DNA of 64,000 nt from Gemmatimonadota bacterium (lineage in GTDB: Bacteria; Gemmatimonadota; Gemmatimonadetes; Palauibacterales; Palauibacteraceae): positions 1,869-65,868 of the forward strand of contig JBDGYE010000005.1 of the NCBI GenBank assembly GCA_039584255.1, written 5' to 3'. The notes under the pieces are model-generated. The model did not search any database, had not been told where the DNA came from, and saw nothing but the letters and a program-made list of their open reading frames with translations. This document shows, piece after piece, positions 43,834 to 64,000 of the stretch; the first letter of the stretch is position 1, and every line of letters starts with the position of its first letter. The position numbers were made by a program, and so were the translations under genes.

Positions 43834-43836
43834 CGG

Positions 43837-48270: not shown

Positions 48271-48271
48271 C

Positions 48272-48955
48272 TCATTCCCTCGAAGCCAGATAGTAGACCT
48301 TGGGCTCGGTTCCAAGTTCTTCCATGATGCGCATCGCCCGCGACTCCTCCGCGAGTTGCGCTACGCGGTGCTCCGGATTGTCCAGGTCGCCGAAGACGAT
48401 GGCTTCGGTCGGGCACACTTCGGCGCACGCGGGCTGGTAGTCCTCCTCGCGAAGCGGCCGGCCGTCGGCGCGAGCGGCCTCGCGGGCCTTCTGGAGACGA
48501 TGATGGCAGAAGGTGCACTTCTCGATGACGCCCTTGGGCCGAACGGATACGTCGGGATTGAGATGCCGGCGCTCCGACTCGGCCCACTCCGGTCCGTACC
48601 AGTTGAAATACTTGACCACGTAGGGACAGGCGTTCGCGCAATAGCGGCAGCCGATGCAGCGCGGGTAGATCTGTCCGACGATTCCCTCATCGCTGATGTA
48701 GGTTGCCTCGACCGGACACACCTTGGTGCACGGCGGGTTGTCGCAGTGCATGCAGGGCCGCGGGTAGAACCTCATGGCCGTGTCGGGGAAATCGCCCTCG
48801 ATTTCCGTCACGACCGTCATCCAGCTCATGGCGCGACCGATCTCGGCCTGCCCGGGCGATACCGTGGGAATGTTGTTCTCGCTCTTGCACGCCACTTCGC
48901 AGGCCAAGCAGCCCGTGCAGCGGTCGAGGTCGATCACCATGCCCCATCGCGTCAT
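48272..48955 (-). CDS. 4Fe-4S dicluster iron-sulfur subunit (PsrB/DmsB/ActB2-like)
   Basis: MTRWGMVIDLDRCTGCLACEVACKSEN...CMHCDNPPCTKVCP...CIGCRYCANACP...CTFCHHRL...CAEVCP are four ferredoxin-type Cys clusters. Confidence 0.85.
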   Translation of the reverse strand: MTRWGMVIDLDRCTGCLACEVACKSENNIPTVSPGQAEIGRAMSWMTVVTEIEGDFPDTAMRFYPRPCMHCDNPPCTKVCPVEATYISDEGIVGQIYPRCIGCRYCANACPYVVKYFNWYGPEWAESERRHLNPDVSVRPKGVIEKCTFCHHRLQKAREAARADGRPLREEDYQPACAEVCPTEAIVFGDLDNPEHRVAQLAEESRAMRIMEELGTEPKVYYLASRE

Positions 48956-48968
48956 CGTCGCCAGCCTC

Positions 48969-51332
48969 TCACACCCGTTGGAGGCGCACGAAGGTCGTCG
49001 ACCAGGACTGAACACCCGTCAGGGGGTCGATCGAGCCATCGAGCACGCTGAGCGGGTTTGCGATTTCGCCGTCGGGGTGGCGGAGCCCGTAGGGTGCGCA
49101 AACGTGATCCGGGGGCGCACCCAAGAACAGCTTCAGCCGAGCGCGGTATCTGCCGCGTGACGACTCGACCCAGACCTGGGTGTCGTCCTCCAGACCTAGC
49201 GAGCGGGCCGTAGCCGGGTTCACCTCCACCCACGGATCCCAGTGAACTTCGGGGAACAGGCCGGGCTTTTCGGCGAGCCAACGCTCGAGGGCGAGGCTTC
49301 CGGATGCGAGCGTCGACACGCGGTACGGGACAAGACGCAGCGGGAAGCCATCGGTCGGGGCCACACCCCTGCTTCCCACATCGATGTAGGGCCGCCGCGG
49401 TCTGCCTTGGGCGTCCAGTACGACCGGCAGCCCCGGCGGCATCAGCTGGACGCGGCCATCAGACGTTCGGGCCAGGCGGCCGGGATCTGTGTGATCGTAG
49501 AACAGGTCCGTCCAGCCGCCTCTCTCCGTGAGCGCATCCCAGAACTCATCGAACTCCGTGTGCTGCGGCAGCCACCAGCCGCGCGACTCCATCTGCTCGT
49601 AATGCCTGCTCTCGAAGTCGCTTCTGAATGTCATGCCACGGCGTGCCGCGAACAGCCCTCGGGCGCGCTCTCTGAGCAGCGTTTCCACGCCGTCGTACGG
49701 AAGCGCCTCACGAACACCTCCGCCGAGCGCCCGCGCGATCTCGAGGACGGCATCGATCGTGTGCGTTCCACCCTCGTGCGGCGCAACGAGCGGCTGCGCG
49801 AGACCCCACACGGGATACGGGTAGGACTGTGGTGTGGGGGCGTCCTGCCAGCGCTCGTACGGAAGCAGGTCCGGCAACACGAGGTCTGCGTGCCGCGTGG
49901 TCTCGTCGAGGAAAGGCGAGAAGCTCACCACGTAGTCGATCATCTCCAATGCCTCACGCCAGACGTCAGGCGCGACCGACGAGGCGATCGGATTCGAATA
50001 GTAGAGGAAGAGGACTTCGACCTGTGCCGCGGCGCTTCCGACGATGGCCTCGGCGAATCGGTCGCGCTGGCCACCCGCCCCGAAGGCCGGAAGCGGGCCG
50101 GCCACACGCTCCCGGTCCAATCCGCGGCGCGCGGTATCGTCCAGAACCAGCGGCGCCAGCGGAGCGAGCGGCAGATCGTCCCCGAGCAGCACCCCGCCCG
50201 GCCGGTTGAGGTTGGCCGTGATCACGTTGACGCTGTGCACGGCCATGCCGGCGAGAAGTCCGTTCGGCGCAGCTGTGACGTCGCTCCCACAAATCGCAAC
50301 CGCTGCCGGGCTCTCGGCGTACGTCCTCGCCAGGGAGGTGATTCTCTCCACCGGCACACCGGTGATCGCCGATACCTCTTCTGTGCGGAAATTCCGGCTC
50401 ACGATAGACCGGTAGCCCTCTTGCAGCTGGCCTTCCACGTCCGTGAAGTCCTCGAAGCCGGACACTCGCTCGGCTATGAAGTCGAGTTCGAGCAGCTCGT
50501 CTCGGATCAGCACGTACGCGATCCCGAGTGCTAGGACCGCGTGGGTCCCCGGCCGGACACCCACCCACTCATGTGCTCGCGCCGCCGTCCTTGAGAAGCG
50601 CGTGTCCACCTGAATGAAACGGGAGCGCCGCGTTTCGTCGGATTCCGGATGGGCAAAACCCACGAAGGCCTGAAGGGGCGACCACCACGCCTCGAAGAGG
50701 GGGGCACCGAAGGAGAGCACCAGCTCTGAGTGGCCGAGATCGTAGCTCGGCCGCCGCTCGACCCCGTGCATCAGGGCCATCACCCCGTCGGTTCCGTCGC
50801 GGTAGTCATCGGCTATGTAATTCGGAGAGCCGAAAGCGGTGAGGAATTGGCGCCAGACATCCTCAACGGAGCCAGCACAGTATCCGGCGAGCAGGGCCAG
50901 CGCCTCGGGCCGGTCGGCCGCCCGCAGGCCCTTCAGGCGCTCAGCGATCAGAGCGAGAGCTTCATCGCGAGTCACCTGCCGCCACTGTCCTGAGCCCCGC
51001 GGGCCGTCTCTCACGATGGGTCCCGTGAGCCGCTGCGGATGGTAGAGTACCTGTACTCCCGCGATGCCACGCGGGCAGATACCCCCACGGCTCATCGGGT
51101 GAAGCGGGTTTCCGGCGATGCCTACGAGACGGCCGTCGACCAATCTGCCCCGAATGCCGCAACGCGCCGGGCAGAGCAAGCACGTCGACGCGCGAGCCTC
51201 CTCGAGCCCGGGCTCCCAGCCCTCGTATCCGTCCTGGTCCTGCGGCCACAAGACCTCCGGGACCCCCTGGAACGCCACGGCAGCCGCGGCCGCGCTGGCC
51301 GTCCAGAAGAACTCGCGACGAGTAGGGCTCAT
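48969..51332 (-). CDS. Tat-exported molybdopterin-oxidoreductase-family catalytic/large subunit (PsrA/PhsA/TtrA-like or cofactor-less ActB1-like)
   Basis: GGAGG RBS. The Tat signal is MSPTRREFFWTASAAAAAVAF. N-terminal Cys cluster C-x2-C-x3-C-x27-C (CLLCPARCGIRG...GGICPRG). Total ~787 aa. Confidence 0.8.
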   Translation of the reverse strand: MSPTRREFFWTASAAAAAVAFQGVPEVLWPQDQDGYEGWEPGLEEARASTCLLCPARCGIRGRLVDGRLVGIAGNPLHPMSRGGICPRGIAGVQVLYHPQRLTGPIVRDGPRGSGQWRQVTRDEALALIAERLKGLRAADRPEALALLAGYCAGSVEDVWRQFLTAFGSPNYIADDYRDGTDGVMALMHGVERRPSYDLGHSELVLSFGAPLFEAWWSPLQAFVGFAHPESDETRRSRFIQVDTRFSRTAARAHEWVGVRPGTHAVLALGIAYVLIRDELLELDFIAERVSGFEDFTDVEGQLQEGYRSIVSRNFRTEEVSAITGVPVERITSLARTYAESPAAVAICGSDVTAAPNGLLAGMAVHSVNVITANLNRPGGVLLGDDLPLAPLAPLVLDDTARRGLDRERVAGPLPAFGAGGQRDRFAEAIVGSAAAQVEVLFLYYSNPIASSVAPDVWREALEMIDYVVSFSPFLDETTRHADLVLPDLLPYERWQDAPTPQSYPYPVWGLAQPLVAPHEGGTHTIDAVLEIARALGGGVREALPYDGVETLLRERARGLFAARRGMTFRSDFESRHYEQMESRGWWLPQHTEFDEFWDALTERGGWTDLFYDHTDPGRLARTSDGRVQLMPPGLPVVLDAQGRPRRPYIDVGSRGVAPTDGFPLRLVPYRVSTLASGSLALERWLAEKPGLFPEVHWDPWVEVNPATARSLGLEDDTQVWVESSRGRYRARLKLFLGAPPDHVCAPYGLRHPDGEIANPLSVLDGSIDPLTGVQSWSTTFVRLQRV

Positions 51333-51355
51333 CCGTAACCTCCAGCCTCTATTCT

Positions 51356-51874
51356 CTATCGATGGCAGGCGTTGCAGTCGAGCGTAGCCCCCCGCTCGAG
51401 ATGGCAATCCATGCAGAAATCCATCGTCATCTCCACCAGCGGCCGGTTTGGTGGCCTAGTGGTCTCTGCTATCCTGCCGTGACATTCCTCGCACGGGAGC
51501 TCGGCGATTCCGACGTGCCGGCGGTGCGTGTAGAAGACGTGAGGTTCGAGCCGGAAAAGCTTGTTGAATCTCAGCGGGTCACCCTGGGCGATCAGTTCCG
51601 TGACCCGGGCGGCCTCTGGCGATGTCCCCTGCACGGTCTCGTGGCAGGCCGAACACGTTTCGGCGTCCGGAAGCCCGGCGTGGGCACCGGTGCCCACGTA
51701 AGGGTGGCAGAAGTCGCAGGCCATCTGGAACTCCCCGGCGTGTTTCAAATGGTTGAATTGAACGGGCTGGGGCACACGCGGACCGGGCGCAGCGACCAGG
51801 GATACTACCGACGCGATGACGACAATCGTCACGAAGACCACGACTCTTCGGCGCGAGATGCTGCGTCGCTTCAC
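51356..51874 (-). CDS. pentahaem c-type cytochrome with N-terminal TM anchor (ActA-like)
   Basis: N-terminal TM RRVVVFVTIVVIASVVSLVAA. Five CXXCH motifs (CDFCH, CSACH, CEECH, CMDCH, CNACH) in 172 aa. It is the first gene of the operon. Confidence 0.75.
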   Translation of the reverse strand: MKRRSISRRRVVVFVTIVVIASVVSLVAAPGPRVPQPVQFNHLKHAGEFQMACDFCHPYVGTGAHAGLPDAETCSACHETVQGTSPEAARVTELIAQGDPLRFNKLFRLEPHVFYTHRRHVGIAELPCEECHGRIAETTRPPNRPLVEMTMDFCMDCHLERGATLDCNACHR

Positions 51875-52188: not shown

Positions 52189-53286
52189 TCAGACGGTGGG
52201 GCTGGCCGTGTAACCCAGAATAGTGAGCACGATGATATAGACTATGATGCCGACACCTATCCACGTGAACAGGTGGCTTCGCTCGCCACGTGCAGACCCT
52301 CGATCCAGGAAGGGAATGATCAGAAGGAGGAGCCCGGCCAGGGCAAACGCCATCGCGCCCACGACTTCGCCCTCGAACACGAGAATGTGGCTAGGGAGCA
52401 GCTTCAAGGTGTGGAACATGAACATGAAGTACCACTCGGGCTTGATGCCGATCGGAGCGGGCGCGAAAGGATCCGCCTTCGTTCCGAGCTCCGCCGGCAC
52501 GAAGGCCGCGAGCGCGGCAAGCACGCCGAGGGCGGCGAGCCAACCCACGAGGTCTCGGAGGAGGAAGTTGGGAACGAACGGAAGGCTCCGCCTGGTCTCC
52601 CTTTTCTCGGCGACATCTGGCGGAATGCTCATGCCGTGCCGCTGAACCATGAACAGGTGCAAGCCTATGAGAAGGACGGTGATAGAGGGAAGAATCGCAA
52701 CGTGGATCGCGTAGAAACGCGTCAGCGTCGCGCCTGACACATCTTCGCCTCCGCGCAGGAGTTGTTTGGCGAACGACCCCACCAGCGGGAAGACCCCCAC
52801 GATCTCGGTGCCGACTCTCGTGGCGAAGAACGCGAGCTCATTCCACGGCAGAAGGTAGCCCGTGAAGCCGAACGCCAGAGCCAGAACCAGCAGTCCGACA
52901 CCCGACAGCCACGTGATCTCCCGCGGCGGCCGGTAAGCCTTCAGAAGCAGTACGCTGAAGAGATGGATGAATACCGTGAAGATCATCAGGTTCGCCGCCC
53001 AGGAGTGCAGCGAGCGCACCAGCCAGCCGAATTCCACTTCGGCCATCAAGAACTGAACCGACTCGTACGCCTCCTCTGCGCTGGGCCGATAATAGAACAG
53101 AAGCAGCACGCCGGTGACCACCTGCACCAGGAAGAGAAACAGCGTCATTCCTCCCAGGTAATACCAGACGCTGTGCCGGTGGACCGGTACCTCTTTCTTC
53201 CTGGCGAGCTCGGCGAACGGAGCGAAGCCGATGCGATCGTCCAGCCACTTCCAGAGGTCACTCAGCGCCTGCCGGGATCTTCCCAT
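52189..53286 (-). CDS. cytochrome b (cytochrome bc complex, fused b6+subunit IV-type)
   Basis: The start [21 protein letters not shown] overlaps the Rieske stop (ATGA). The motifs ...[26 protein letters not shown]...[24 protein letters not shown]...[13 protein letters not shown] are canonical haem bL/bH His positions. Confidence 0.85.
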
Positions 53287-53288
53287 GC

Positions 53289-53744
53289 TCACGCCCCCCG
53301 GCTCACAACTATCTGATCGCCTCGCACGTTGACTTCGAAGGCATCGAGCGGTCGGGGTGGCGGGCCGGCGACGTTTCGACCGCTGAGGTCGAAGTGGCCG
53401 TTGTGGCAGGCACACCAGATGCGGCTGATGTCGTCGCGGTACTGCACGGTGCACTCGAGGTGAGAGCACACGGCCGAGAAGGCGCGGAGCTCTCCGTCTG
53501 GCGTGCGGACCAAGATTCCGGCCCGGTTGCCGAATCTGAACAGCCGGCCGTTGTTCGGAGCGATTTCCTCCGGCGCGAACGGCAACACGACCGAGCTCGC
53601 CGCCGATTCGGCGCTCGCGGGTGGAATGAGGTACCTGGTCACCGGGTAAAAGATCGCCAGCAGAATCCCCCCCACACCGGTCCCGAGGATCCAGTTGACG
53701 AACCTCCGTCGGGAAGCTCCGCCGGACTGTGAGGCTCCGCTCAT
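53289..53744 (-). CDS. Rieske [2Fe-2S] iron-sulfur subunit
   Basis: Tat-like [11 protein letters not shown] plus a TM. Box I CSHLEC and box [10 protein letters not shown] are present. Confidence 0.85.
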
Positions 53745-53782
53745 CAGTGCTCTCTCCTCCGCGAATCCAGAGGTTCGGGTGC

Positions 53783-55069
53783 TCAGGTCGTGCGACCTGC
53801 GGTGTGCCTTCCCTCGATCTGATGGATCTTCATCACAAGCCCGACTATCAGCACGATGATGACGATCACCGATGCGGCGAGGCCCATCCGACGGACCTGC
53901 AGATCGCGCAGCGCCCGAACGCCGCGCTCGACGCCCTCGGCGGCGATCTCCAGTCCTCCCTCGACTTCCGCACCGACAACGTCGGGGTTGAAGGCGTGAA
54001 CGGCCGCTCTGGCCTTTACGAGACCATCGTGGGCCCCCGTCATCTCGAATTGAGCCTGGCCGACCTCCATGCCGGCGTTCTCCGCTCGCGACAGGACCCA
54101 TTCCGCCGAATCCACAACGGTGCGCAACGAGTCGATCATGGCACGCATTGCCGCGGCGGCCTGACCGCCGGGATCATCCGCGGAATGGCATTGACTGCAT
54201 ACCGCATCGTCGGCCAGGCCGAGCATCGCGTCGCCGGCTTCGCCGATGTCGTGATTCCGGTGGCAGGTGGCGCACCCGGGAGTGCCGAGCAGGGTGAAGA
54301 CTTCTGCGTGGCGGGACTCTACGAAGTGGCCTGCCATCACGGCGTGACACTGCCCGCAGACATTGCCCACCCAAGAGATCCCGGGTGGGGCCGCGCCGTG
54401 ATTGCCGTGACAGTCGTTACAGGTAGGGGCCGAGAGGTCGCCCTCCTCGGACAGCATCCGCCAGTGCAGGCTGCGGTCGTACTTGTCCACCTGGTCCGAA
54501 GGCAGGCCGTACGGCTCCATGCGTTCCGGGTCTGCGTGACACTTCCCGCAAGTCTCCGTAACCCGTAGGGGGTGGACGCTCGAATTCGGGTCCGTCGGCC
54601 GCAGAATCTCGTGAGCGGGGTGACAGCTGATACATGTCGCAACGTTCGGGTCTCCGAGCTCCGTCAATCGGCGACCATGGGTGGAGGTCGCGTATTCCGC
54701 CAACTGGTCCACGCGGAGAGAGGGATTGTACCGCCTCATGAACTCAGCGTCCGCGTGGCACCGACCGCAAACCTCGAGGACCTGCCTGTGATCCGGAACG
54801 CCGATGTACCCCTTCATCGGGTCCATGGCCTCCAGTCCAGCCAACGTGGCGTCTCCCCCGTGGCACGCGATACAGCCGAATCCCTTGGCGGCGTGCACGT
54901 CCCGGGGGTAGCTCTCGGCCGGAGCGGCGAGACGCCCGCCGAGGGCTGCATGGCAGGTCAGGCACGTGCCGGTGGGCGGCTGGGCTTCCTGGCCCGGCGA
55001 TGCCGTTGGCCAGCCGGCAGCCGCGACGGCGATGGTCAGCAGACCGGCCCCTCTGTTGAGCCTCCTCAT
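53783..55069 (-). CDS. nonahaem c-type cytochrome with C-terminal membrane anchor
   Basis: Signal peptide. Nine CXXCH motifs (CLTCH, CIACH, CGRCH, CISCH, CGKCH, CNDCH, CGQCH, CATCH, CSQCH). C-terminal [23 protein letters not shown] overlap with the upstream cytochrome gene. Confidence 0.8.
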
Positions 55070-56280
55070 CGCGGCACCGCCAGAGATTCCAGAAACGCCC
55101 CTAGATCTGCCATCTCGCTTGGCGTAAAAGTAGGCCAGACTTCCCCGATGCCCGACTCGTACATAGCCGGGGCATGGTTCCAGAGCGAGGCAGCCATTCC
55201 GCCCGGAGAGTCGACGCCTCTCACCGCGGCCAGGTCCGGAGCGTTCGTCCCCCCGCGGCCGTTCAACGAATGACAGGCGAGGCAGCCCTTATCCCTCAAC
55301 AGGAGTCGTCCGCGGTCCGGATCGCCGGAATCCGCGAAGTACTGGACAGAGTGGAGGTATGCCACGAGATCCGCCATCTGTACGGCCGACAGCTTGGGGA
55401 CCGACAGCCCTCTGGCCCTCAACGCGCGGCGCATCGCCGGAGCTTTGTTAAGCATAGCCGCAGCGAACTCGGTCATGCTCCGCCTGCCCCGGCCCCCTGC
55501 CAGATCGGGACCGAGCCGTCCTCCTCGGCCCAGGATGCTGTGGCAATCGATGCAACCCTTCTCCACGACCAGCCGCCTTCCCTCGTCCGCCCGCCCGGGC
55601 AATACGTGCAGAGGGCCTTGTGGCCAATCCCCCGCGGCGGATTCCAGGTAAGAGATCAGGTCGATGAGCTCGCTGCCCGAGACAGACGACCGCTCGATGC
55701 CGAGAGCGTTCATCGCTTCGTCCATGGCCGGCCCGTGGTTCCACATCGCCGCCGCGACCTGGATCGGCGATCCGAAGTAGCTCACGAACTCGAGGTTCGG
55801 ACCGATTACGCCGCCCACGCCGCCGACCTGATGGCACATCACGCAGCGCTTTTCCGTGAACAGCTCCCGGCCGTGCGCGGCATCGCCGGGAGGATCGAAG
55901 TAGTCGAGCGTGAACAGGAAGGCGATGAGATCGCTCGTCTCCTGCGCCGTCATCTGTGGCCGGTCGATGCCGAGGCTCCCCATGCGTTCGACCATCCGTG
56001 GAACGTGGTTCCACATGTGCGCGGCCAGCTCATAGAACGTCTTCCTCTCGGAAGAGGCTCCCAGATCCGGGCCCTCGTCTCCGCCGAGCCCGCGGACGGC
56101 GTGGCACTTCACGCAACCCTTTTCCCCGAAGACCTGCGCTCCGGCGAAGGCGTTCTGAGCCGGTCCCGCCGGCGTCTGCGCAAGGCTCGCCGTAGTGGCT
56201 CCGAACAGCGCAAGTACGGCAGCCAGGGGGACGATGATGGACCGGTGCGGATGCCCCATGCGGATACTCTCGTCAGTCAT
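55066..56280 (-). CDS. c-type cytochrome with four class-I monohaem domains (paralog of 45681..46901)
   Basis: CVKCH, CVMCH, CIDCH, CLACH, each followed by the G.GG..GP(D/N)L and MWNH/LWNH motifs. Signal peptide present. Confidence 0.75.
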   Translation of the reverse strand: MTDESIRMGHPHRSIIVPLAAVLALFGATTASLAQTPAGPAQNAFAGAQVFGEKGCVKCHAVRGLGGDEGPDLGASSERKTFYELAAHMWNHVPRMVERMGSLGIDRPQMTAQETSDLIAFLFTLDYFDPPGDAAHGRELFTEKRCVMCHQVGGVGGVIGPNLEFVSYFGSPIQVAAAMWNHGPAMDEAMNALGIERSSVSGSELIDLISYLESAAGDWPQGPLHVLPGRADEGRRLVVEKGCIDCHSILGRGGRLGPDLAGGRGRRSMTEFAAAMLNKAPAMRRALRARGLSVPKLSAVQMADLVAYLHSVQYFADSGDPDRGRLLLRDKGCLACHSLNGRGGTNAPDLAAVRGVDSPGGMAASLWNHAPAMYESGIGEVWPTFTPSEMADLGAFLESLAVPR

Positions 56281-56528: not shown

Positions 56529-56924
56529 ATGAGGAGAGCGCTGAGTTTGATGCTGGGCCTGACCCTTGTCTTCGGTTTCGGCTTGCAGGCCGCGGCCGCA
56601 CAGGAGTCTGGCAAGCCGGCTGCCGTGACCCACGATCTCGAGGGCAAGGACAACTGCCTGATGTGCCACAAGACCGGGGTCATGGAAGCTCCGGTCGCGC
56701 CCGAGAGCCATGCCGACCGCACGAGCGACGTGTGCCTGCTATGCCACGGCGAGGGCTCGCCGATGCAGACAGCGGATGCGGGAGCGATCCCCCACGATCT
56801 CGAGGGCAAGGACAACTGCCTGATGTGCCACAAGACCGGGGTCATGGAGGCGACGAAGATTTCGGAGAATCACGGCGAGGTGGCGAACGAGCAGTGTCAG
56901 CTCTGCCATACGCCGGCCGGCTGA
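56529..56924 (+). CDS. small periplasmic tetrahaem c-type cytochrome (tandem dihaem modules)
   Basis: The signal peptide is MRRALSLMLGLTLVFGFGLQAAAAQE. Four CXXCH motifs (CLMCH, CLLCH, CLMCH, CQLCH) occur in a ~105-aa mature protein. Confidence 0.75.
   Translation: MRRALSLMLGLTLVFGFGLQAAAAQESGKPAAVTHDLEGKDNCLMCHKTGVMEAPVAPESHADRTSDVCLLCHGEGSPMQTADAGAIPHDLEGKDNCLMCHKTGVMEATKISENHGEVANEQCQLCHTPAG
56631..56849 (+). repeat. 162-bp-period tandem duplication inside the tetrahaem gene; first ~57 bp of each unit identical except 1 nt
   Basis: cacgatctcgagggcaaggacaactgcctgatgtgccacaagaccggggtcatgga(a/g)g occurs at 56631-56687 and 56793-56849 (HDLEGKDNCLMCHKTGVMEA twice). The rest of each unit has diverged (ESHADRTSDVCLLCHGEG vs ENHGEVANEQCQLCHTPAG). 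Confidence 0.85.
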
Positions 56925-57075
56925 GCCGGACCCTCCGACTCCTGGAGGCAAGCGCTTCCGGAGTCGCAAGTAGGGAGTAGATAGACTCATAAACTCAGAT
57001 CGCCGCGGCGCCTGACCGACGCCGCGGCGATCTTCTTTGTTGTCCGCAGGGCTTTGAGCCCCCTGCCCGATACCT

Positions 57076-58470
57076 CTACGGCGAGTCCAGCTGGAATCCG
57101 AAGTGGCAGATGCCGCAGGACATCTCGCTCTTCTCCCGGACGTGCTCGGGGTCGAAGTCGGGCCCGTGTGGGTTGATCCGGAAGCCTTCCTTCGCCGAGT
57201 GGCAGCGTAGACACGAATCCTGCTGGTGGCAGGAGACGCAGGTCTCCAGGTTCTGTCGGGCCGCCTGCCCGTGGCTCTGAAACCAGTTCGGATCCGCGTC
57301 GTGGTAGCCGCCGGCGGTCCTTTCGTCCTGGCCGGCACCCTGGCTCTCATGGCAGTTCCGGCAGAAGACCTCGCGCGAGTGGCACTCGGCGCATTCCATC
57401 GGCGCGGCCCAGGCCTCCGCGGGGTGACGCTGGACGAAGTTCACCGGATGAAAGACGGGCCGCCCCGCTCCGTCGTGACAGTCGATGCAGAACGTCTCGG
57501 CATGGCAGGCGGAGCACTTTGGAGTCGCCGCCACGGCCGCCTCGCCGTGCGCCACCGCGAAGGTCGGTCCGTGACCGGGAACTTCCCCGCTGGCCGGCAC
57601 GGCTCTGGCAGAAGCTCCGTGGGCCTCCGGGAAGCCGTCGGTCACGCGGTCACCCGTGTCGAGGTGACAGGCAGAGCACGTCTCCGCCGCGTGGCAGGTG
57701 GAGCAGCTCTGAGGCGAGGTCTCCGCAAGCGCGGAGTGCGTCATCTGCCAGTCGGACGCCTGGTGGCTCGGCGGAATCGGCCAGCTTCCCTCGCGGCCGG
57801 TAACCATCTCGGCCACGCGCCCGTCCGCGGCGAGAGCCATGATTGGCGCCACCGCCGCGGCGTTGGCGTGGCAGCGGGTGCAGCTCTCCCGGGCGTGGCA
57901 GACTGAGCACCGGGCCACGTCGTCAAGGGCCGCTGCGCCGTGCTGGAAGGCGAAGTCGGCCGACCCGTGATCCGGTGGCGCGGAAAACGCCGCGATCGTG
58001 GCCGCCGTCATCGCCGGCGCCTCGGAGAGTGTCATGTGGCACTGTGCACACGGCACGCCCGCGGCCTGGTGATCCTCCGTGCCGGGCGCGTGGCAGGCCA
58101 TGCAGGCCTCGGCGGCGGCGGCCTGAACCTCCATCTCGCCGCCGGTGCCGGGAGTCTGGTGGCAGGCGCCGCAGGGGAGCTCCGGGTGGCCCGGGTGGAC
58201 CGTCTTAAGGTTCCCCGCCGGTTGCTCGGCCCGGCCCTCCCACGCAACCGCCGGGAGGTTGGTGCCATCGTGGCATCCGCCGCACAGCGTCGGCTCGACG
58301 GATACCGACTGCTCCGGCTCTCCCGCCTCGATGCCTTCGTGACACGCGGTGCAGGTGGGGAAGATCCCCTGATGCCGCGCGTGCGGGAACGGCGTCTCCT
58401 GTGGGCGCGAGAGCATGACCCCCACACCGAACAGCAGCCCGACGGAAGCTAGCAACGCCGCTCGTTTCAT
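57076..58470 (-). CDS. 16-haem c-type cytochrome (secreted; very high haem density)
   Basis: The start MKRAALLASVGLLFGVGVML (58470) overlaps the stop of the upstream beta-barrel gene (ATGA). Sixteen CXXCH motifs occur in ~464 aa, about 1 per 29 aa. Confidence 0.8.
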   Translation of the reverse strand: MKRAALLASVGLLFGVGVMLSRPQETPFPHARHQGIFPTCTACHEGIEAGEPEQSVSVEPTLCGGCHDGTNLPAVAWEGRAEQPAGNLKTVHPGHPELPCGACHQTPGTGGEMEVQAAAAEACMACHAPGTEDHQAAGVPCAQCHMTLSEAPAMTAATIAAFSAPPDHGSADFAFQHGAAALDDVARCSVCHARESCTRCHANAAAVAPIMALAADGRVAEMVTGREGSWPIPPSHQASDWQMTHSALAETSPQSCSTCHAAETCSACHLDTGDRVTDGFPEAHGASARAVPASGEVPGHGPTFAVAHGEAAVAATPKCSACHAETFCIDCHDGAGRPVFHPVNFVQRHPAEAWAAPMECAECHSREVFCRNCHESQGAGQDERTAGGYHDADPNWFQSHGQAARQNLETCVSCHQQDSCLRCHSAKEGFRINPHGPDFDPEHVREKSEMSCGICHFGFQLDSP

Positions 58471-59942
58471 CAGTAGCCTCCGATTCCCCGCAGCGAGGTG
58501 CGCGGCTGGGCCGCCATGGTGCCGAAGCGGTAACCGAGCGACAGGTGGGCCCGCGCCTGAGTCCAATCCGGGCTGTCCGGTCGCTTGTCGTACGTCATTC
58601 GGTAAAGGCCACCGCTTCCCGACACGGAAAACGTCCCGACATTCCAGGAGAAGTCGAGCCCGCCGCCGGAGGCGACCTGCTCACCGACGCGAAACTCGCC
58701 GAACGTCTGGGTGACGGTACCGTGCAGTGCCAGCCTGATATCGGGTCCGAAGGTTCGGCCCACGGTGAGATCACCTCCGTAGCGCGCGGCGCCGAAGCCG
58801 GTCTCCGACCGGTAGCCCCCGTCGACGAACCAGTCGCGTCCCCGCCACCGCCCACCGGCCAGAAGGCGCCAGCCGTCGGTCTTCATGGGTGCTAATTCTG
58901 CGCCCGCGTTGGCCTTCTCGTAGTCGCGGTATCCGCCTCCCACCTCCAGCGTCAGGGTCGAGCCGGGGAGGGTCCAGCTCAGCAGTCCACGGCCCTCCTT
59001 GAATCCGACCGGAGTAAAGGCGCCCCAGATCGTCCACAGCTCGAAGAAAGGAGTGTAGTGCCTTCCCTCCAGCGTCAGGTGGAAGCCTTTCGGAAGCGGG
59101 GCGGCGGCGGCCAGCCGGGCCGAGTTGACCTCCTTGTAGGCCAGGTCATAAGCCAGTGAGCCGTCGATCACGACCTGCGGCAGCATCAGCCGCGCATCTG
59201 CAGCGATCCGCTCGGAGTAGAGGGCCAGGCGATCGGTGCGGATCTCGCGCTGGTACAGGCCGCTGAGGAAGAATTTCCTCTGGACGTCGACTCCGGCCTC
59301 GAAGCCGTAGATCAGGGCCCGCTTGTCCGGCGCGAAGACGTCGTTCTCGCTGAGCAACTTCCCGCTTCGCGGAGCGTTCGTGCCCGGGTAGAGGCTCCAA
59401 CCTCCCCAGGCCTCCAGCCGGAGCACGTCGAGTCCCTTCCAGAGAACCGACCCTCCATCGAAGTTGCGGTAGCCCAGGCTGCTCGCTCGCAGCAGCCGGC
59501 CCGCCGTGGCGCGCCACCCGGCCCGCTCGTACCGCGCGTAGCCCGTGATCAGGTCGAACTCCTGGCTCGACTTCGGCCACACCTCGTCGCTCAGAAAGCG
59601 GGTCCGCATCTGGCTGTGCACGGAGAGTCCTTCCACCCCGAGCCAGGCCGCGAACCGGATGTCGCCGTAGGTCGGAGTGACCGTCTGCACATCGCCAGCA
59701 CGGTACCAGCGGCAGAAGTCGTCGGTGAGGCAGGTAACGATGGTGCCGTTCGCGAGCCGTCTCTGAAGCCCGTCGCCAGGAACGCTGCTCTCCGGGACGC
59801 TGTCTCGCACCAGGCCGCGCAGCTCGAGCACGTCTCCCCGTACCCTTACCTCGGCCTGGTATCCCTGAGCGGCGAGTGAAAGTGGACTCAGCGGGGCTGC
59901 CAGGAGGAGGAGAGCGAGCGCCCGTCGATGGACGGTCATCAT
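58470..59942 (-). CDS. outer-membrane beta-barrel protein (candidate cytochrome-associated porin, MtrB/OmbB-like role)
   Basis: Signal peptide MMTVHRRALALLLLAAPLSPLSLAAQG. About 490 aa with abundant alternating hydrophobic/polar β-strand segments (…GLDFSWNVGTFSVSGSGGLYRMTY…, …HLSLGYRFG…). The C-terminal residue is Tyr. An N-terminal C-x5-C (CLTDDFC) is present. Confidence 0.55.
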   Translation of the reverse strand: MMTVHRRALALLLLAAPLSPLSLAAQGYQAEVRVRGDVLELRGLVRDSVPESSVPGDGLQRRLANGTIVTCLTDDFCRWYRAGDVQTVTPTYGDIRFAAWLGVEGLSVHSQMRTRFLSDEVWPKSSQEFDLITGYARYERAGWRATAGRLLRASSLGYRNFDGGSVLWKGLDVLRLEAWGGWSLYPGTNAPRSGKLLSENDVFAPDKRALIYGFEAGVDVQRKFFLSGLYQREIRTDRLALYSERIAADARLMLPQVVIDGSLAYDLAYKEVNSARLAAAAPLPKGFHLTLEGRHYTPFFELWTIWGAFTPVGFKEGRGLLSWTLPGSTLTLEVGGGYRDYEKANAGAELAPMKTDGWRLLAGGRWRGRDWFVDGGYRSETGFGAARYGGDLTVGRTFGPDIRLALHGTVTQTFGEFRVGEQVASGGGLDFSWNVGTFSVSGSGGLYRMTYDKRPDSPDWTQARAHLSLGYRFGTMAAQPRTSLRGIGGY

Positions 59943-60087
59943 GCATGCTCCGGGGAGTGTGGGTTCAACCACCGTCGAGTCCCGCTATTCGGCTGCCTCA
60001 ACTTGATGTACGCTTCCCAATGCATCAACCCCGCCGGGGGACGGCTCAGTGACCGGTCCCCGGGGAGCCACCTGATATGGCCGCGGC

Positions 60088-62922
60088 TCACCGATAGCCG
60101 AACAGCGCCGAGTACACGATGAGGAGGATCAGAAAGGTCCCAACGCCCAGCATCGTGAATCCGAAGATCCGGAACGCCAGCTCCACTCTTTGCGGGTAAG
60201 GCACCACGAGTCGCTGTTCGAACTCACCCTGCGCGACCATCCGCTCGTACTCGCGTGGCTTGTCGCGTCTGAGCTCCTCCACCGAGACCCGGCCCGTGAA
60301 GATCACCGGATCCATGGGAAACTTGTCGAGTCGGAAGTGCGTGTTGAAGAAGTGGATGGTGAAGATAAACGCCACCGCAAGTAGCGCTTCGTCGCTGTGG
60401 ATGATCGTCGCCACGTTCACCAGCTTCCCCGGAAGGAGGATCGTGAAGAACTCGGGAAACCAGAGCAGAAGCCCCGTCGAGCCGATCACGAACATCCCCC
60501 AGAACACGGCGAAGTAGTCGAACTTCTCCCAGTATGTGTAGCGCCCGTACTTCGGTCGTGGCCCCCGCCCGAGGAACCACTTGACCGAGGCCATGAACTC
60601 CCGGACGTCGTCCATGTTGAACACCAGGGAGTCGCGGGACTTGATCAACTCCAACCAGGTCTGGCCGGCGCGCTTCTTCTGCTTACGTACATCGATGAGG
60701 TGAATAATGAACACCGCGATCAGCGCCACGGCTCCGAGCCGGTGCCATACTCCCAGGGCCCCGAAGCCGCCCAAGAGCCACGCGAAACTCTGGGCCCAGC
60801 CCATGTGCGAGAACTTGAGTGCCATCCCGGTCGCCGCGAGCGTCATGAAGCTGAGCATCATGACTATGTGGAGCGAGCGCTGGAACGTCGTGAACCGGCG
60901 GTACTCCTTCCGGGACCTAGCCGCGGCGTCCACCGTCTCAGGTGCCTTCCACTCGTCCGGTGAGCGCCACAACCGCCACAGCCAGGCGGCCGTATGGGTC
61001 GTAGCGACGGTCAACGTGCCGATCAGCAGGCTCGCCATGAACCAGAAGGTCCAGAACAGGAAGGGGTACCGATCCGGATCGTGGTGCGTGGCGTGCGTCA
61101 GGTAGCCCGTGAACCTTCTGTTGGCTCCTCGGTGACATTGCCCGCACGTGTCGACGATGTGACGGCGGCTCAGGGTGGAAGCCGGCTCGCTGGGCGGGAG
61201 GATGGAGTGCGTTCCGTGGCAGTCGTAGCACTTCGCGGCCCGCTCTTCCCCGAGGCGCGAGACCTTGCCATGGTACGTGTCGAAGAAGGTCTCGGCCTCA
61301 CTCTCATGGCAGCGGCCGCACTGGTCCATCATCAGCAGCCTGAAGTCGGCCCTGTCCGTGCGGCTGATGGTGTGCGATGTGTGACAGTCCTCGCAGGTCG
61401 GCAGCTCGTGCTCCCCGGTGGGCTCGCCCACTCCCGGCCAGTGGATGCTCCCCCGGAACTGCTCTTCGATCCCGTGGTGACACTCGCCGCATGTGATGGC
61501 GACGTTCGCGGGGTGCACCTTCGAGCCCTCGTCCTCGGCCGGGAGCTCACTGTGCGCGCCGTGGCAGCTCGTGCAAGTGGCCGTGACCACGAGGCCGCTC
61601 TCGATGAGCCCCTTCCCGTGGATGCTCATCTCGTAGGAGCCGACGATGTCGCCGAAGCGACTCGGGATTCGGGTCGCAGCCGCCTCGCCGGGCCGATGAC
61701 AGCGTGCGCACAGGTCCGGTACGTTCCTCGGGTAGGTGGGCGAGGTCGGCACCCGCTTGTCCATCTCGGCGTGCTTGTCGTGGCAGTCGTAGCACGTAGG
61801 GGCATCCGCGTCGCCCTGCGCCGCCAGGGTGCCGTGTGCGCTCCTCTCGTACTCCGCCATCACGTCGGCGTGGCAGATTCCGCAATCGACGGGCGACTCT
61901 ATCGTCTCACAGGGTCGCTCGTCGTAGAGCGCCGTCACCTCGACGTGACACTGCGCACACGAGGTGCCCGAATGATCCGACTCGTTGAAGGCCTCCTCGT
62001 CCACGTGCATGGACACATGCTGGACGCCTCTCCGGTCGACCACGAGGTTCGGGTCGGCGTGGCAGCGCATGCAGTCCTGGTTGGAGACCCCCGCGTCGTA
62101 GAACACCTGCCGGATCCTGTGCGGCGAGTGACAGTCCACGCAGGCCGGGATGACCTCGGGCTCCTCCTCCCACAGGTGCCCCTCGATGACCTGGACATGC
62201 ACCTCCTCGATCCGCCCGTGGCACCGCGTGCAGGTGGCGGCGACGTTGTCGAGGTGGATGCTGGAGCGCGGATCGGTATGCGGCAGAATCCGGTGCGACG
62301 TATGGCATGACGTGCAAACCGCCGTGACCGTGAGTCCCTGCCGGAACAGCCCGGTTCCGTGAATCGAGAGTGAGTAGTTCTCGAGGATCCTGTCCTCCGG
62401 GATGTCCCTCGTGCGCGAGACCTCCGTTCCTTCGTGGTGGCATTCCCCGCACAGCAAGGGGATGTTCATCACCGCGGTCGGAGACTCCGGGTCCGAGCTC
62501 CGGAGGACATCGTGCCTGCCGTGGCAGTCGGAGCAGCTCGGAGCGAGGGGGTCTCCCCTGGCCGCCGCCCGCCCGTGTAGCGACTCGCTGTGCTCTCGGT
62601 CCTGGATCGAGTGACAGCGCCCGCAGTCGGCCGGCGCGCGGTCCTCAGGATGGGGGAAGGAGAGTCCTGCGTGGCAGTCGGTGCACCCGAGGCGGGCGTG
62701 AACCGATCCGTCGAGCTGGTCCTGGGTGATCACGAAGCGCTGCCCGTCGGCCCGGGTCTGCCAGAACTCGGGGTTCTGGTGGCACATCAGACAGGCCGCG
62801 TTGTCCTGCGCGCGCGCCGGGGTCACGGCCGTCAGTAGAACCGCGAGCGTCAGGCACAGCGGCAGGATGCCTGAGGACAGGCGGATCCACCTGTTCCATC
62901 TATGCCCGAATCGAGACGTCAT
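60088..62922 (-). CDS. 19-haem c-type cytochrome fused to a C-terminal HydC/FdnI-like dihaem b-type cytochrome membrane domain (CbcL-like)
   Basis: The start is at MTSRFG (or MRNGPRDR, 62946), followed by a signal/anchor. There are 19 CXXCH motifs in the first ~640 aa. The last ~330 aa are 4-5 TM and clearly paralogous to ORF 63273..63983 (e.g. RFTTFQRSLHIVMMLSFMTLAATGMALKFSH vs VFFQRSELIQHMLLAVSFIVLVITGFALRYPD; ...YWEKFDYFAVFWGMFVIGSTGLLLWFP... vs ...YWALIWGTLLMVFTGLVLWFP...). Confidence 0.8.
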   Translation of the reverse strand: MTSRFGHRWNRWIRLSSGILPLCLTLAVLLTAVTPARAQDNAACLMCHQNPEFWQTRADGQRFVITQDQLDGSVHARLGCTDCHAGLSFPHPEDRAPADCGRCHSIQDREHSESLHGRAAARGDPLAPSCSDCHGRHDVLRSSDPESPTAVMNIPLLCGECHHEGTEVSRTRDIPEDRILENYSLSIHGTGLFRQGLTVTAVCTSCHTSHRILPHTDPRSSIHLDNVAATCTRCHGRIEEVHVQVIEGHLWEEEPEVIPACVDCHSPHRIRQVFYDAGVSNQDCMRCHADPNLVVDRRGVQHVSMHVDEEAFNESDHSGTSCAQCHVEVTALYDERPCETIESPVDCGICHADVMAEYERSAHGTLAAQGDADAPTCYDCHDKHAEMDKRVPTSPTYPRNVPDLCARCHRPGEAAATRIPSRFGDIVGSYEMSIHGKGLIESGLVVTATCTSCHGAHSELPAEDEGSKVHPANVAITCGECHHGIEEQFRGSIHWPGVGEPTGEHELPTCEDCHTSHTISRTDRADFRLLMMDQCGRCHESEAETFFDTYHGKVSRLGEERAAKCYDCHGTHSILPPSEPASTLSRRHIVDTCGQCHRGANRRFTGYLTHATHHDPDRYPFLFWTFWFMASLLIGTLTVATTHTAAWLWRLWRSPDEWKAPETVDAAARSRKEYRRFTTFQRSLHIVMMLSFMTLAATGMALKFSHMGWAQSFAWLLGGFGALGVWHRLGAVALIAVFIIHLIDVRKQKKRAGQTWLELIKSRDSLVFNMDDVREFMASVKWFLGRGPRPKYGRYTYWEKFDYFAVFWGMFVIGSTGLLLWFPEFFTILLPGKLVNVATIIHSDEALLAVAFIFTIHFFNTHFRLDKFPMDPVIFTGRVSVEELRRDKPREYERMVAQGEFEQRLVVPYPQRVELAFRIFGFTMLGVGTFLILLIVYSALFGYR

Positions 62923-63272
62923 TCGATCTCTCGGTCCGTTTCTCATCCGCACGACCGGTTGGCAGGGCAGGTCGTGCCTAATCCATGTAGCTGCAAGAAG
63001 CGGACTCGGTCGAGCGGAGGTGGCCGCTGGGCATTGTGCCGCTTCGGGACGGGGAATCTGCTGGTTGGCCGATCGGGTCGCGCGCCCTTTCCGCACAACG
63101 GCGCGCGGGTCGCGGGGTCAATGTGTCACATCATGTTCGTGAAAGACCGCGCAGGAGTGTAGTGAGAACAGCCGCAAGGCTGTAACGCCATGCTGCAGAT
63201 CCGGTTGTGGCCCTCAGAATGGGCCCGGGGCCCAACCGGGCGCCCGGCGGCCCCCCGTCCATCGAATGATCC

Positions 63273-63983
63273 TCAGCTTCCGCTCATCTGCGAGGGCTTG
63301 ACTTCCTCCTCGTACCACTCGCTGTGGTGCTCCTTTACCTCTTCCTCCGGCATCCGACCCGTCAGCCAGGTCCAGCTCATCGGATATACGTCGGGATGGA
63401 AAATCACGAAGAAGAAGTGCCACACGACGATGGCCAGGGTCGCCAGCCAGGCCTCATAGAAGTGCACCGTCTGAGAAGCCGAGACGATCCAGTACGGAAA
63501 AATCCGCACCGAGGCCTGCGGAAACCACAGCACCAGCCCGGTAAACACCATGAGCAGCGTTCCCCAGATGAGGGCCCAGTACTCCGCCTTCGCTGGATAC
63601 CCAAAGCGACCGAAGCGAGCCTTGTCACGGCTCCGCCAGGTGTGGAAGCGGATGTTGTCGGCCAGATCCCGGAAGTCCTTCATCGCCGGCAGCATATCAC
63701 TTAGAACCCGGCGGCCTCGCCGTATGCTGAGCAGGTACGTGCCATGCCAGACGGACACCACCATCAGAGCGACACCGGCGACGCGATGGACGGTGGAGCG
63801 CACGGTCTCGCCCAGCCCGAGCTCGCCCGCCGCTTGGACCCAGAACGCGTCCGGGTACCGCAGAGCGAATCCCGTAATCACCAGCACGATGAAGGAAACG
63901 GCGAGGAGCATGTGCTGGATGAGCTCGCTCCGCTGGAAGAAGACAATCCCTCCCTCGCGCCGCTCCGCCCGCCGCTTCTCCAC
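63273..63983 (-). CDS. dihaem b-type cytochrome, HydC/FdnI/PhsC-like (Ni/Fe-hydrogenase / formate dehydrogenase gamma-subunit family)
   Basis: Four TM helices with conserved His positions (…HMLLAVSF…H.VAGVALMVVSVWHG… …HFYEAWLATLAIVVWHFFF). A GTG start at 63981-63983 is possible. The ORF is open to the window edge, so the true start may be outside. Confidence 0.65.
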   Translation of the reverse strand: MEKRRAERREGGIVFFQRSELIQHMLLAVSFIVLVITGFALRYPDAFWVQAAGELGLGETVRSTVHRVAGVALMVVSVWHGTYLLSIRRGRRVLSDMLPAMKDFRDLADNIRFHTWRSRDKARFGRFGYPAKAEYWALIWGTLLMVFTGLVLWFPQASVRIFPYWIVSASQTVHFYEAWLATLAIVVWHFFFVIFHPDVYPMSWTWLTGRMPEEEVKEHHSEWYEEEVKPSQMSGS

Positions 63984-64000
63984 CAGGTAGTAGTTGATGA

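Follow-up and report, generated by a model that had tools for sequence, protein, structure and literature searches.

Conduits of the MtrCAB/MtoAB/PioAB type (6R2Q) consist of a large plug-less barrel which sheathes an all-bis-His multihaem wire, the genes for the barrel and the periplasmic cytochrome being adjacent. In the Geobacter-type Pcc clusters (OmbB-OmaB-OmcB) the porin gene comes first and is followed by that of a periplasmic, non-lipoprotein multihaem cytochrome, while two-gene clusters of a porin and a periplasmic 12-14-haem cytochrome have been described in Anaeromyxobacter and Ca. Kuenenia, where the high haem count was proposed to let a single cytochrome span the membrane (Shi et al. 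2014, PMC4245776). Some Mtr/Mto/Pio clusters also contain MtrH/MtoC genes of the CbcL type, a family reported to have 3-23 haems and to include one Gemmatimonadetes member (PMC6295460). In the candidate clusters PCC3 and PCC4 of iron oxidisers, a porin occurs together with cytochromes of very high haem content and an inner-membrane protein of the dihaem-b type (He et al. 2017, PMC5566968), and PCCs with petB/petC neighbours, that is an association with bc-complex genes, have already been reported (PMC13264449).

The window analyzed here is a stretch of 64,000 nt from a Gemmatimonadota bacterium (GCA_039584255.1, contig JBDGYE010000005.1, positions 1,869-65,868, forward strand). Its features (Table 1) indicate that the locus probably encodes a porin-cytochrome trans-envelope conduit for respiratory electrons which is built on a Gemmatimonadota-specific barrel family. 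Six-frame translation placed 70/70 CXXCH motifs of the window within positions 42634-64000 and none in the remaining 85,266 residues, a clustering far above chance. The minus-strand open reading frames of the 19-haem fusion, the barrel and the 16-haem cytochrome contained 19, zero and 16 of these motifs respectively. These three genes of the four proposed in the first-pass annotation are real, whereas the other, a stand-alone dihaem cytochrome b, proved to be an artefact of the window edge.

Table 1. Features of the locus and its neighbours; positions are those of the window.
Feature	Position	Strand	Remarks
C-terminal FdnI/HydC-like dihaem cytochrome b domain of a second CbcL-like fusion, predicted 11 haems	63273..64000	-	cut by window edge
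CbcL-like fusion, 944 aa: signal peptide, ~600-aa periplasmic domain with 19 CXXCH, 6-TM FdnI-like dihaem b	60088..62922	-	
Outer-membrane beta-barrel, 490 aa, new unnamed family (predicted)	58470..59942	-	Sec signal ending AAQ/G, ~24 strands, no plug domain
Periplasmic 16-haem c-type cytochrome, 464 aa, candidate barrel-inserted wire	57076..58470	-	translationally coupled to barrel gene
Small secreted tetrahaem cytochrome, 131 aa, two dihaem repeats	56529..56924	+	4 CXXCH, signal peptide
Neighbouring bc-type operon, four genes	52189..56280	-	Pfam
Protein with four class-I cytochrome c domains	55066-56280	-	Pfam
9-haem cytochrome with C-terminal TM anchor	53783-55069	-	Pfam + TM prediction
Rieske protein	53289-53720	-	Pfam
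Cytochrome b	52189-53280	-	Pfam

The barrel sequence had no match in Pfam, NCBIfam or PDB, and comparison with unrelated porin families likewise returned none. A confident AlphaFold model predicted a plug-less barrel with short loops in which ~24 strands are accommodated within 465 residues; the Pcc porins are also compact and have multihaem genes alongside, but are predicted to contain 18-22 strands. Within the family a Cys71/Cys77 pair was invariant and a PFFELWTIWGAF loop was present. The terminal aromatic residue to which attention had first been drawn is not conserved (Y in 9/46 and R in 24/46 homologues), the conserved C-terminal element being a last strand ending ...YRFG which is followed by a variable tail. 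The family is specific to Gemmatimonadota, and the related loci are almost all from this phylum, a taxon that sets them apart from the Pcc clusters.

The 16-haem cytochrome is made up of five dihaem modules in tandem, gave only generic c3/c7 matches in Pfam and matched no catalytic family. Sixteen non-motif His residues were invariant across 61 homologues, and every one of the 16 haems has an invariant second His, which suggests a function as wire and not as enzyme. That the protein is not a lipoprotein, as previously proposed, was borne out by a Sec-type N-terminus with no Cys ahead of the first haem motif and no lipobox in 61/61 homologues; periplasmic barrel partners normally are not, and MtrA, PioA and OmaB likewise are not. 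The signal peptide in the window genome has a weak cleavage site, so the protein may stay tethered to the inner membrane. The stop codon of the barrel gene and the start of the cytochrome gene overlap as TGATG with one shared base (58472-58468) and not as ATGA, as had been read. The AF2 model of the cytochrome was poor in its C-terminal third, and a structural search with this model gave no match.

In both predicted inner-membrane proteins the four haem ligands of FdnI are kept, as is the 6-TM layout of CbcL. As in CbcL (GSU0274), MtrH and MtoC, an N-terminal periplasmic multihaem domain precedes a HydC/FdnI-like dihaem b in which the His ligands are kept, but with 19 and a predicted 11 haems as compared to 9 in CbcL, and here as two tandem paralogues, with b domains 29% identical to each other, directly upstream of the porin gene. 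The 19-haem fusion matched c7/c3 domains and a C-terminal PF01292 in Pfam as well as TIGR01583 (1.9e-12), and His685/727/842/857 together with at least 21 non-motif His of the periplasmic domain were kept across 29 homologues. Its 19 motifs and FdnI-like b end had been correctly recognized, but the length of 1002 aa given for 62922->60088 was not correct: these coordinates encode 944 aa, 1002 aa requires the upstream GTG at 63096, and a good signal peptide follows the ATG at 62922. The second protein was initially taken for a complete stand-alone dihaem cytochrome b (63983->63273). However, its frame has no stop up to base 64000, its INYYL residues correspond to the preceding TM helix of full-length homologues, and its counterpart in 13/13 relatives examined forms the C-terminal domain of a larger protein, 650-720 aa long and carrying 11 CXXCH; the gene is therefore a second CbcL-like fusion that the edge truncates. 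Its product matched PF01292 (6e-15), scored under the cut-off of TIGR01583, and aligned with FdnI (1kqf_C, E 1.4e-5), the four His that ligate the haems all falling in register.

The synteny of barrel and cytochrome was strict. All related loci with room for it (76/76) carried, immediately 3' of the barrel gene and on the same strand, a 12-16-haem homologue of the 16-haem protein, and the pairing also held in a branch only 29-37% identical, with four genes overlapping by 4 nt. This order is that of the Geobacter-type Pcc, a likeness of layout, although the partner here has 16 haems (or 12-14 in relatives). A multihaem cytochrome gene lies directly upstream of the barrel in 57/65 loci, so that the barrel is flanked on both sides. 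In 25 loci this slot holds a CbcL-type protein with 19 haems, in 16 loci one with 17-18 haems and in 13 an 8-haem protein; among its occupants is a lipoprotein octahaem related to OcwA. An NrfH/NapC-type N-terminus was demonstrated for one 17-haem and one 21-haem upstream example, and thus two unrelated quinol-dehydrogenase families would fill one position. PCC3 and PCC4, whose function is likewise hypothesized from genomics only, differ in that their membrane protein has 5 TM helices with WX3HX13H motifs where ours is FdnI-like or NrfH-like, in their haem counts (4, 5 and 10, or >20 with an extracellular cytochrome) and in their mostly proteobacterial taxa.

Upstream of the barrel, relatives also encode a 10-haem protein and this lipoprotein octahaem, which has a lipobox (~38/80 loci), whereas in Pcc an OmcB-like protein is downstream. 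The nearest solved relative of this octahaem is OcwA (6I5B, E 8.6e-9), the surface terminal reductase of Thermincola potens; the match is partial (residues 164-285), and the octahaem, a lipoprotein of Gram-negative bacteria, has 8 haems as compared to 9. The window lacks it, and within these 64 kb neither a lipoprotein nor a clearly extracellular cytochrome was found, and the locus, earlier called complete, is cut at the window edge. Nor is the list of parts foreign to described clusters, as was supposed, since a non-lipoprotein partner is normal and there are precedents in the 3-23-haem CbcL homologues (PMC6295460) and the 12-14-haem two-gene clusters (PMC4245776).

On the other side, the tetrahaem gene is convergent with the 16-haem gene; a 61-nt repeat within it is 98% identical. 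A homologue is present in 19 related loci, and in ~9 of them the arrangement is that of the window, with the tetrahaem gene right behind the 16-haem gene and on the other strand. Its product is a candidate periplasmic shuttle. The products of the adjoining operon together are predicted to be a bc-type quinol:cytochrome complex, and the same haem island holds an ACIII-like complex and NrfD/FeS modules.

The same hardware might work inward, a reading we consider less likely. The barrel/16-haem pair would then draw electrons from donors outside the cell or within reach of the outer membrane (for example Fe(II) or Mn(II), a reduced mineral, a cathode, another cell) and pass them to high-potential cytochromes/oxidases; the quinone pool would be reached by reverse operation of the bc, ACIII-like and CbcL-like modules, following the logic of MtoAB/PioAB. 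The two-component pair of porin and non-lipoprotein cytochrome resembles MtoAB/PioAB, it adjoins the Rieske/cytochrome b complex, the protein with four class-I domains and the ACIII-like complex, and a Rieske-type cytochrome b lies <10 kb from the barrel gene in 38/76 loci. CbcL homologues (MtoC) are also present in iron oxidisers, and no feature tells quinol-oxidising from quinone-reducing forms (PMC6295460). The OcwA-like octahaem of many relatives, with a terminal reductase as its nearest solved relative, the stand-alone cassettes among relatives with no bc or oxidase neighbour, and a window in which we found no gene for carbon fixation or an oxidase all speak against inward flow, though not decisively. 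The balance tips slightly towards outward flow, with Fe(III), Mn(IV), humics or a partner cell as the acceptor. We know of no Gemmatimonadota isolate that respires minerals, and electron uptake would be as compatible as export with the bc complex, ACIII-like complex and class-I cytochromes nearby.

It is improbable that the barrel is an ordinary substrate/diffusion channel, or a channel for cytochrome export/assembly, which is merely co-transcribed with periplasmic multihaem cytochromes that reduce or oxidise a soluble substrate admitted by the barrel, with no haem chain crossing the membrane. Porins of that kind align over only ~275/490 residues as compared to ~355 for 22-26-strand barrels, and ~24 strands with short loops and no plug would leave an unusually wide open hole unless filled. 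Co-occurrence and translational coupling with one specific all-bis-His cytochrome in 76/76 loci, down to 29% identity, and the multihaem genes on both flanks also argue against it. More improbable still is that the 16-haem protein is a periplasmic subunit of an Hmc/ACIII/Nrf-type membrane complex for periplasmic chemistry, the barrel being incidental. Desulfovibrio HmcA is a 16-haem protein, and the best PDB sequence matches were indeed HmcA (1h29, 1gws, 1z1n; E ~1e-8) and ACIII ActA, with NrfD/FeS modules in the same island; however, the match is restricted to residues 38-156, a generic c3/c7 domain, and the NrfD/FeS genes lie at a distance of 8-14 kb and are missing from stand-alone cassettes, while the barrel gene is always adjacent.

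With its constant 12-16-haem cytochrome partner and the quinol-type membrane cytochromes that precede it, the barrel is thus most likely part of a trans-envelope wire. The core of the first-pass annotation, a quinol-interacting b/c fusion together with a barrel sheathing a cytochrome, came through the comparisons with unrelated porins, catalytic families and homologous loci; its completeness and its first gene did not. In the conduit that we favour, the two CbcL-type proteins of the inner membrane (19-haem and the edge-cut, predicted 11-haem), each with an FdnI-like dihaem b, would exchange electrons with the (mena)quinone pool and feed them to long periplasmic bis-His haem chains. From there electrons would pass, directly or through the small tetrahaem, to the 16-haem cytochrome, which we infer to be inserted in the barrel and to span the outer membrane. 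The outermost, surface-exposed component would likely be the OcwA-related lipoprotein octahaem found in relatives, probably encoded just past base 64000 here. The same conduit logic is described in other phyla (PMC4245776, PMC6295460, PMC5566968), and the locus would therefore represent a known kind of electron conduit, here made from a new protein family.

All 70 CXXCH motifs in the six-frame translation of the window fell within 42634-64000, while none was present in the remaining 85,266 six-frame residues, a clustering far beyond chance. The minus-strand open reading frames reported by the first-pass annotation at 57076-64000 were present, and its 19 and 16 CXXCH motifs for two of the products were both reproduced by motif counting, but its account of the first gene, a length of 1002 aa, an ATGA overlap and a terminal aromatic residue needed correction. 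The length of 1002 aa results from an upstream GTG at 63096; 62922-60088 encodes 944 aa, with an ATG start and, directly after it, a clear signal peptide (...TPARA/QD). The stop of the barrel gene and the start of the cytochrome gene are joined as TGATG, with one base in common (58472-58468), and not as ATGA. A promoter and terminator scan gave counts no higher than chance level.

The first gene had been described as a dihaem cytochrome b at 63983-63273. This gene is incomplete: its frame is open as far as base 64000, with the residues INYYL ahead of the supposed GTG start, and close homologues of the b domain (55-61% identity) form the C-terminal part of a 650-720-aa protein in 13 of the 13 loci examined. 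These homologues consist of a signal peptide, 11 CXXCH motifs, a TM helix with ...FNYYMVEKRR at its end and, last, the b domain. What the window edge interrupts is therefore a second CbcL-like fusion, and the reading of 63273-63983 as a stand-alone FdnI-like cytochrome b was ruled out by the position of the domain in its homologues. Both b domains matched PF01292 and, under the cut-off, the FdnI model TIGR01583, and the four haem-ligand His residues of E. coli FdnI (1kqf_C) aligned in register with both. The b-haem ligands in the 19-haem protein are His685, His727, His842 and His857, which are kept in 29 homologues. Its periplasmic domain has at least 21 conserved non-motif His residues, sufficient to give each of the 19 haems bis-His ligation, and a hydropathy scan gave a signal peptide and the helices expected of the 6-TM CbcL layout. 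Judged from domain content, the two fusions have the defining architecture of CbcL/MtrH/MtoC proteins, with an N-terminal periplasmic multihaem c part, a C-terminal HydC/FdnI-like b part with about 6 TM helices, and conservation of the His residues expected to ligate two b haems. Identity between the b domains is only 29%, so the fusions are old paralogues. The published family spans 3-23 haems and 15 phyla, with one Gemmatimonadetes sequence among them, and this range already embraces both fusions (PMC6295460).

The barrel protein (490 aa) has a Sec signal ending AAQ/G, which is invariant across its family, and was modelled by AF2 with approximately 24 strands. Searches against Pfam and NCBIfam gave no match at E<=0.01, Pfam searches gave none for 46 family members at E<=1 or for five distant members at E<=0.01, and a family profile found nothing among PDB sequences. 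The terminal aromatic residue is not conserved, the last position being Y in 9 and R in 24 of 46 homologues, and its role as a beta-signal was rejected for that reason; the conserved C-terminal element is the last strand ...YRFG, beyond which the tail varies. Conservation is highest at an invariant Cys71/Cys77 pair (CX5C) close to the N-terminus and at an aromatic motif, PFFELWTIWGAF, which spans residues 298-309 in a loop with AlphaFold pLDDT below 50; both are candidate cytochrome contact sites. MtrB homologues likewise carry a functionally important N-terminal CXXC. An exhaustive profile search collected 425 clusters at 50% identity; nearly all of their named members belong to Gemmatimonadota, apart from two of Ca. 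Eisenbacteria and a few apparent mis-binnings. By these Pfam, NCBIfam and PDB searches the family appears to be without a relative among named families.

Only generic c3/c7/paired-CXXCH matches were obtained for the 16-haem protein in Pfam and NCBIfam. The C-terminal two thirds of the protein are built of five tandem dihaem modules (H-x8-H-x10-CxxCH-x4-CxxCH). Besides the 16 motif His residues, 16 non-motif His residues are invariant in a 61-sequence alignment, and bis-His ligation is therefore possible for every haem; nothing in the alignment indicates an open catalytic site. The protein has a Sec signal, and none of the homologues has a Cys residue ahead of the first haem motif; it is therefore secreted yet not a lipoprotein, in agreement with the first-pass annotation. 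Its signal-peptidase site is weak in the window genome.

A scan of one genome per species found 234 barrel relatives, and genomic context was analysed in 80 of these loci. A homologue of the 16-haem protein lay directly 3' of the barrel gene on the same strand in all 76 analysed loci with room downstream, which upheld the synteny of barrel and cytochrome; the 73 complete copies have 16 haems in 54 cases, 12 in 15 and 13-14 in four. A multihaem cytochrome was found directly upstream of the barrel in 57 of the 65 analysed loci with room on that side (19-haem CbcL-type in 25, 17-18-haem in 16, 8-haem in 13, other in three). NrfH/NapC-type membrane-anchored N-termini were identified in a representative 17-haem protein (TIGR03153, 1.9e-11) and in a 21-haem protein (TIGR03153, 1.3e-12; PF03264) which sits further upstream in other loci. 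Large anchored cytochromes of this type, with 17-21 haems, fill the slot held in the window by the CbcL-like fusions, and a 10-haem protein encoded separately in other loci corresponds by homology to the C-terminal portion of the 21-haem form. The 8-haem protein carries a lipobox (e.g. VFSAC, LTSAC, LEAC), and such a lipoprotein octahaem (approximately 450-530 aa) occurs near the barrel, upstream, in about 38 of the 80 loci. Its nearest solved relative is OcwA, a cell-surface terminal reductase of Thermincola potens (6i5b, E 8.6e-9); the match to MccA was weaker.

One divergent branch of the family, whose barrels share only 29-37% identity with the protein in the window, is found in a stand-alone cassette amid unrelated genes, in the order lipoprotein 8-haem, TM-anchored 18-haem, barrel and 14- or 16-haem protein. 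Overlaps of 4 nt join the barrel gene to its neighbours on both sides in locus L084 and on the downstream side in locus L083. From the synteny across loci, this divergent branch included, the conserved unit therefore comprises the barrel and the cytochrome encoded downstream. Ahead of this unit there is usually an inner-membrane multihaem protein of quinol-dehydrogenase type, from one of two unrelated families, and often a lipoprotein octahaem as well. The window holds the CbcL version of the cassette. Neither a lipoprotein octahaem nor any other lipoprotein cytochrome was found within its 64 kb. The closer relatives with upstream sequence (loci L003-L007, L057, L058 and L063) have the order octahaem, 10-haem, 11-haem CbcL, 19-haem CbcL, barrel, 16-haem and convergent tetrahaem, and by analogy the octahaem and 10-haem genes of the window locus are therefore predicted to lie just past base 64000.

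Coordinates of the genes of the proposed conduit and of neighbouring modules in the window, and of cytochromes in related loci (designated L) carrying a barrel homologue
Feature	Sequence	Position	Strand	Module
16-haem protein (16 CXXCH)	window	57076-58470	-	conduit cassette
Barrel (0 CXXCH)	window	58470-59942	-	conduit cassette
19-haem CbcL-like fusion (19 CXXCH)	window	60088-62922	-	conduit cassette
Second CbcL-like fusion, cut by window edge	window	63273-64000	-	conduit cassette
Pentahaem ActA-like protein	window	51356-51874	-	ACIII-like complex
Molybdopterin-family subunit	window	48969-51407	-	ACIII-like complex
4Fe-4S subunit	window	48272-49015	-	ACIII-like complex
NrfD-type membrane subunit	window	46894-48315	-	ACIII-like complex
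434-aa protein, 4 CXXCH, class-I cytochrome c domains	window	45681-46985	-	ACIII-like complex
8-haem cytochrome	window	44643-45464	-	MHC/FeS/NrfD module
4Fe-4S protein	window	43837-44685	-	MHC/FeS/NrfD module
NrfD-type membrane protein	window	42634-43833	-	MHC/FeS/NrfD module
Large NrfH/NapC-type cytochrome	L074	2681-4645		
Large NrfH/NapC-type cytochrome	L054	8100-9992		
Large NrfH/NapC-type cytochrome	L083	6124-7989		
Lipoprotein octahaem	L006	2624-4042		
Lipoprotein octahaem	L003	2454-3812		
Lipoprotein octahaem	L083	4517-6112		
Lipoprotein octahaem	L084	1638-3104		

Five quinone-linked modules lie inside 22 kb of the window, namely the bc complex, the ACIII-like complex, the MHC/FeS/NrfD module and the two CbcL-like fusions. 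In the Rieske/cytochrome b complex (52189-56280, minus strand) the place of cytochrome c1 is seemingly taken by a 9-haem cytochrome that is anchored by a C-terminal TM segment (residues 395-413), and a 404-aa protein with four class-I cytochrome c domains precedes the complex. About half of the related loci have the same set no more than 10 kb from the barrel gene. An ACIII-like respiratory complex occupies 45681-51874 and a second quinone-interacting module (MHC/FeS/NrfD) 42634-45464, both on the minus strand. The tetrahaem gene (56529-56924) contains a 61-nt direct repeat, 98% identical, at 56629-56689 and 56791-56851, and its product is made up of a dihaem unit (HDLEGKDNCLMCHKTGVMEA...) present twice; this pattern suggests that the gene recently underwent an internal duplication or gene conversion. 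The tetrahaem and 16-haem genes converge across a gap of 151 bp, in which the two 14-nt arms of a perfect inverted repeat enclose a 9-nt loop (AGATCGCCGCGGCG / CGCCGCGGCGATCT, 56997-57033), possibly a bidirectional terminator hairpin, though it has no T tract. Two other products, a 1096-aa protein with PD40/WD40-like beta-propeller repeats and a C-terminal Omp85-superfamily domain (19574-22864, plus strand) and a CopC-CopD fusion protein (12967-14592, minus strand), appear unrelated to the cytochrome island.

The best-supported reading of the cassette, and one we consider probable, is a porin-cytochrome conduit, in which the barrel has a secreted, non-catalytic multihaem cytochrome as its conserved neighbour. 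The evidence so far consists of domain content, ligand conservation, the predicted barrel fold and synteny, and from it we infer docking of the cytochrome in the barrel, coupling to quinol, surface exposure and the direction of flow. The interpretation in the first-pass annotation was partly supported, in its conduit but not in its stand-alone cytochrome b. The barrel matched none of the MtrB/PioB or porin models that the annotation had named for comparison. Members of MtrB/PioB have 26-28 strands and an adjacent TIGR03508 decahaem, compared with approximately 24 strands and a 16-haem partner here, and the 16-haem protein scored 18.8 bits against TIGR03508 (MtrA/PioA/DmsE; cut-off 192.2). With the family models unmatched (PF11854 and TIGR03509 in the case of MtrB/PioB), membership of both MtrB/PioB and MtrA/DmsE was rejected for the window system. 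An identity as an OprD/Occ, FadL, OprP or maltoporin-type porin was likewise rejected, there being no Pfam, NCBIfam or PDB-sequence match; general and specific porins are recognised by a family HMM, a 14-18-strand barrel and the lack of a cytochrome partner, none of which was observed. For the 16-haem protein, a catalytic octahaem had been named as the outcome that would count against a wire. NrfA chains matched it at 1e-4 to 9e-3, across one haem-motif stretch only; no catalytic family HMM matched, a motif scan found no CXXCK, and a catalytic reading of NrfA/HAO/OTR/MccA type was ruled out by this lack of CXXCK, the generic Pfam matches and the 16 distal His residues. A match to HmcA covers residues 38-156 only and the neighbour is a barrel, not FeS/NrfD, so this identity was also rejected.

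The same function is proposed for the cassette as for Mtr/Mto/Pio and Geobacter Pcc systems. In layout it most resembles the two-gene clusters of Pcc type, in which a periplasmic 12-14-haem cytochrome comes after the porin (PMC4245776). Agreement with the Geobacter Pcc (OmbB/OmaB/OmcB) is in this gene order only, and the Geobacter clusters encode an outer-membrane lipoprotein multihaem whereas the window has no such gene in 64 kb. PCC3 and PCC4 have another membrane protein (5-TM, two WX3HX13H motifs) and other haem counts, whereas the window cassette and its relatives have FdnI-like or NrfH-like membrane partners and haem counts of 19, 16, 11 and 8; membership was rejected on this composition, as described in PMC5566968, rather than by sequence comparison. 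Porin-multihaem clusters of divergent sequence are emerging phylum by phylum (PMC5566968, PMC13264449, bioRxiv 10.64898/2026.05.27.727921), and the cassette is not categorically new and no surprise in kind.

In the conduit as proposed, the periplasmic haem chains of the inner-membrane CbcL-type fusions would take electrons outward, the 16-haem wire, seated in the 24-strand barrel, would traverse the outer membrane, and a surface lipoprotein cytochrome would be the outermost contact in loci having one. CbcL relatives are known in iron reducers and iron oxidisers alike (PMC6295460), and the window neighbourhood (Rieske/cytochrome b, ACIII-like and MHC/FeS/NrfD modules) would fit either uptake or export; export is slightly favoured by the OcwA-like octahaem and the stand-alone cassettes. 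We regard as unlikely a fully hard-wired, envelope-spanning cable of more than 35 c-haems, running from quinone site to cell surface with no diffusible shuttle. In such a cable the approximately 600-aa, 19-haem periplasmic domain of the CbcL-type protein, or in relatives the 17-21-haem NrfH-type protein, would bridge the periplasm, and this haem domain would dock straight onto the 16-haem cytochrome inside the 24-strand barrel.

Gemmatimonadota are abundant in soils and marine sediments and are regarded mainly as aerobes, denitrifiers and phototrophs. Our literature searches found no porin-cytochrome cluster described in this phylum. The cassette is present in two named Palauibacterales MAGs, Ca. 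Carthagonibacter metallireducens (L007) and Ca. Benthicola marisminoris (L056); the name 'metallireducens' was argued from a NiFe hydrogenase and abundance in metal-polluted sediment, with the cluster unmentioned (PMC10469786). The barrel is carried by at least 234 species-level genomes, and because of this, if the cable reading is true, the Gemmatimonadota of sediments and soils would widely be capable of extracellular respiration, a trait so far unrecognised in them. The cassette is of solid interest for the extracellular-electron-transfer field. The interchange of CbcL-type with NrfH-type proteins at a single genomic position offers a natural experiment in the coupling of such conduits to the quinone pool. 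The conserved cassette would add a phylum able to exchange electrons with minerals, humics, electrodes and partner cells, and would also be an independent solution to sheathing a haem wire in a membrane.
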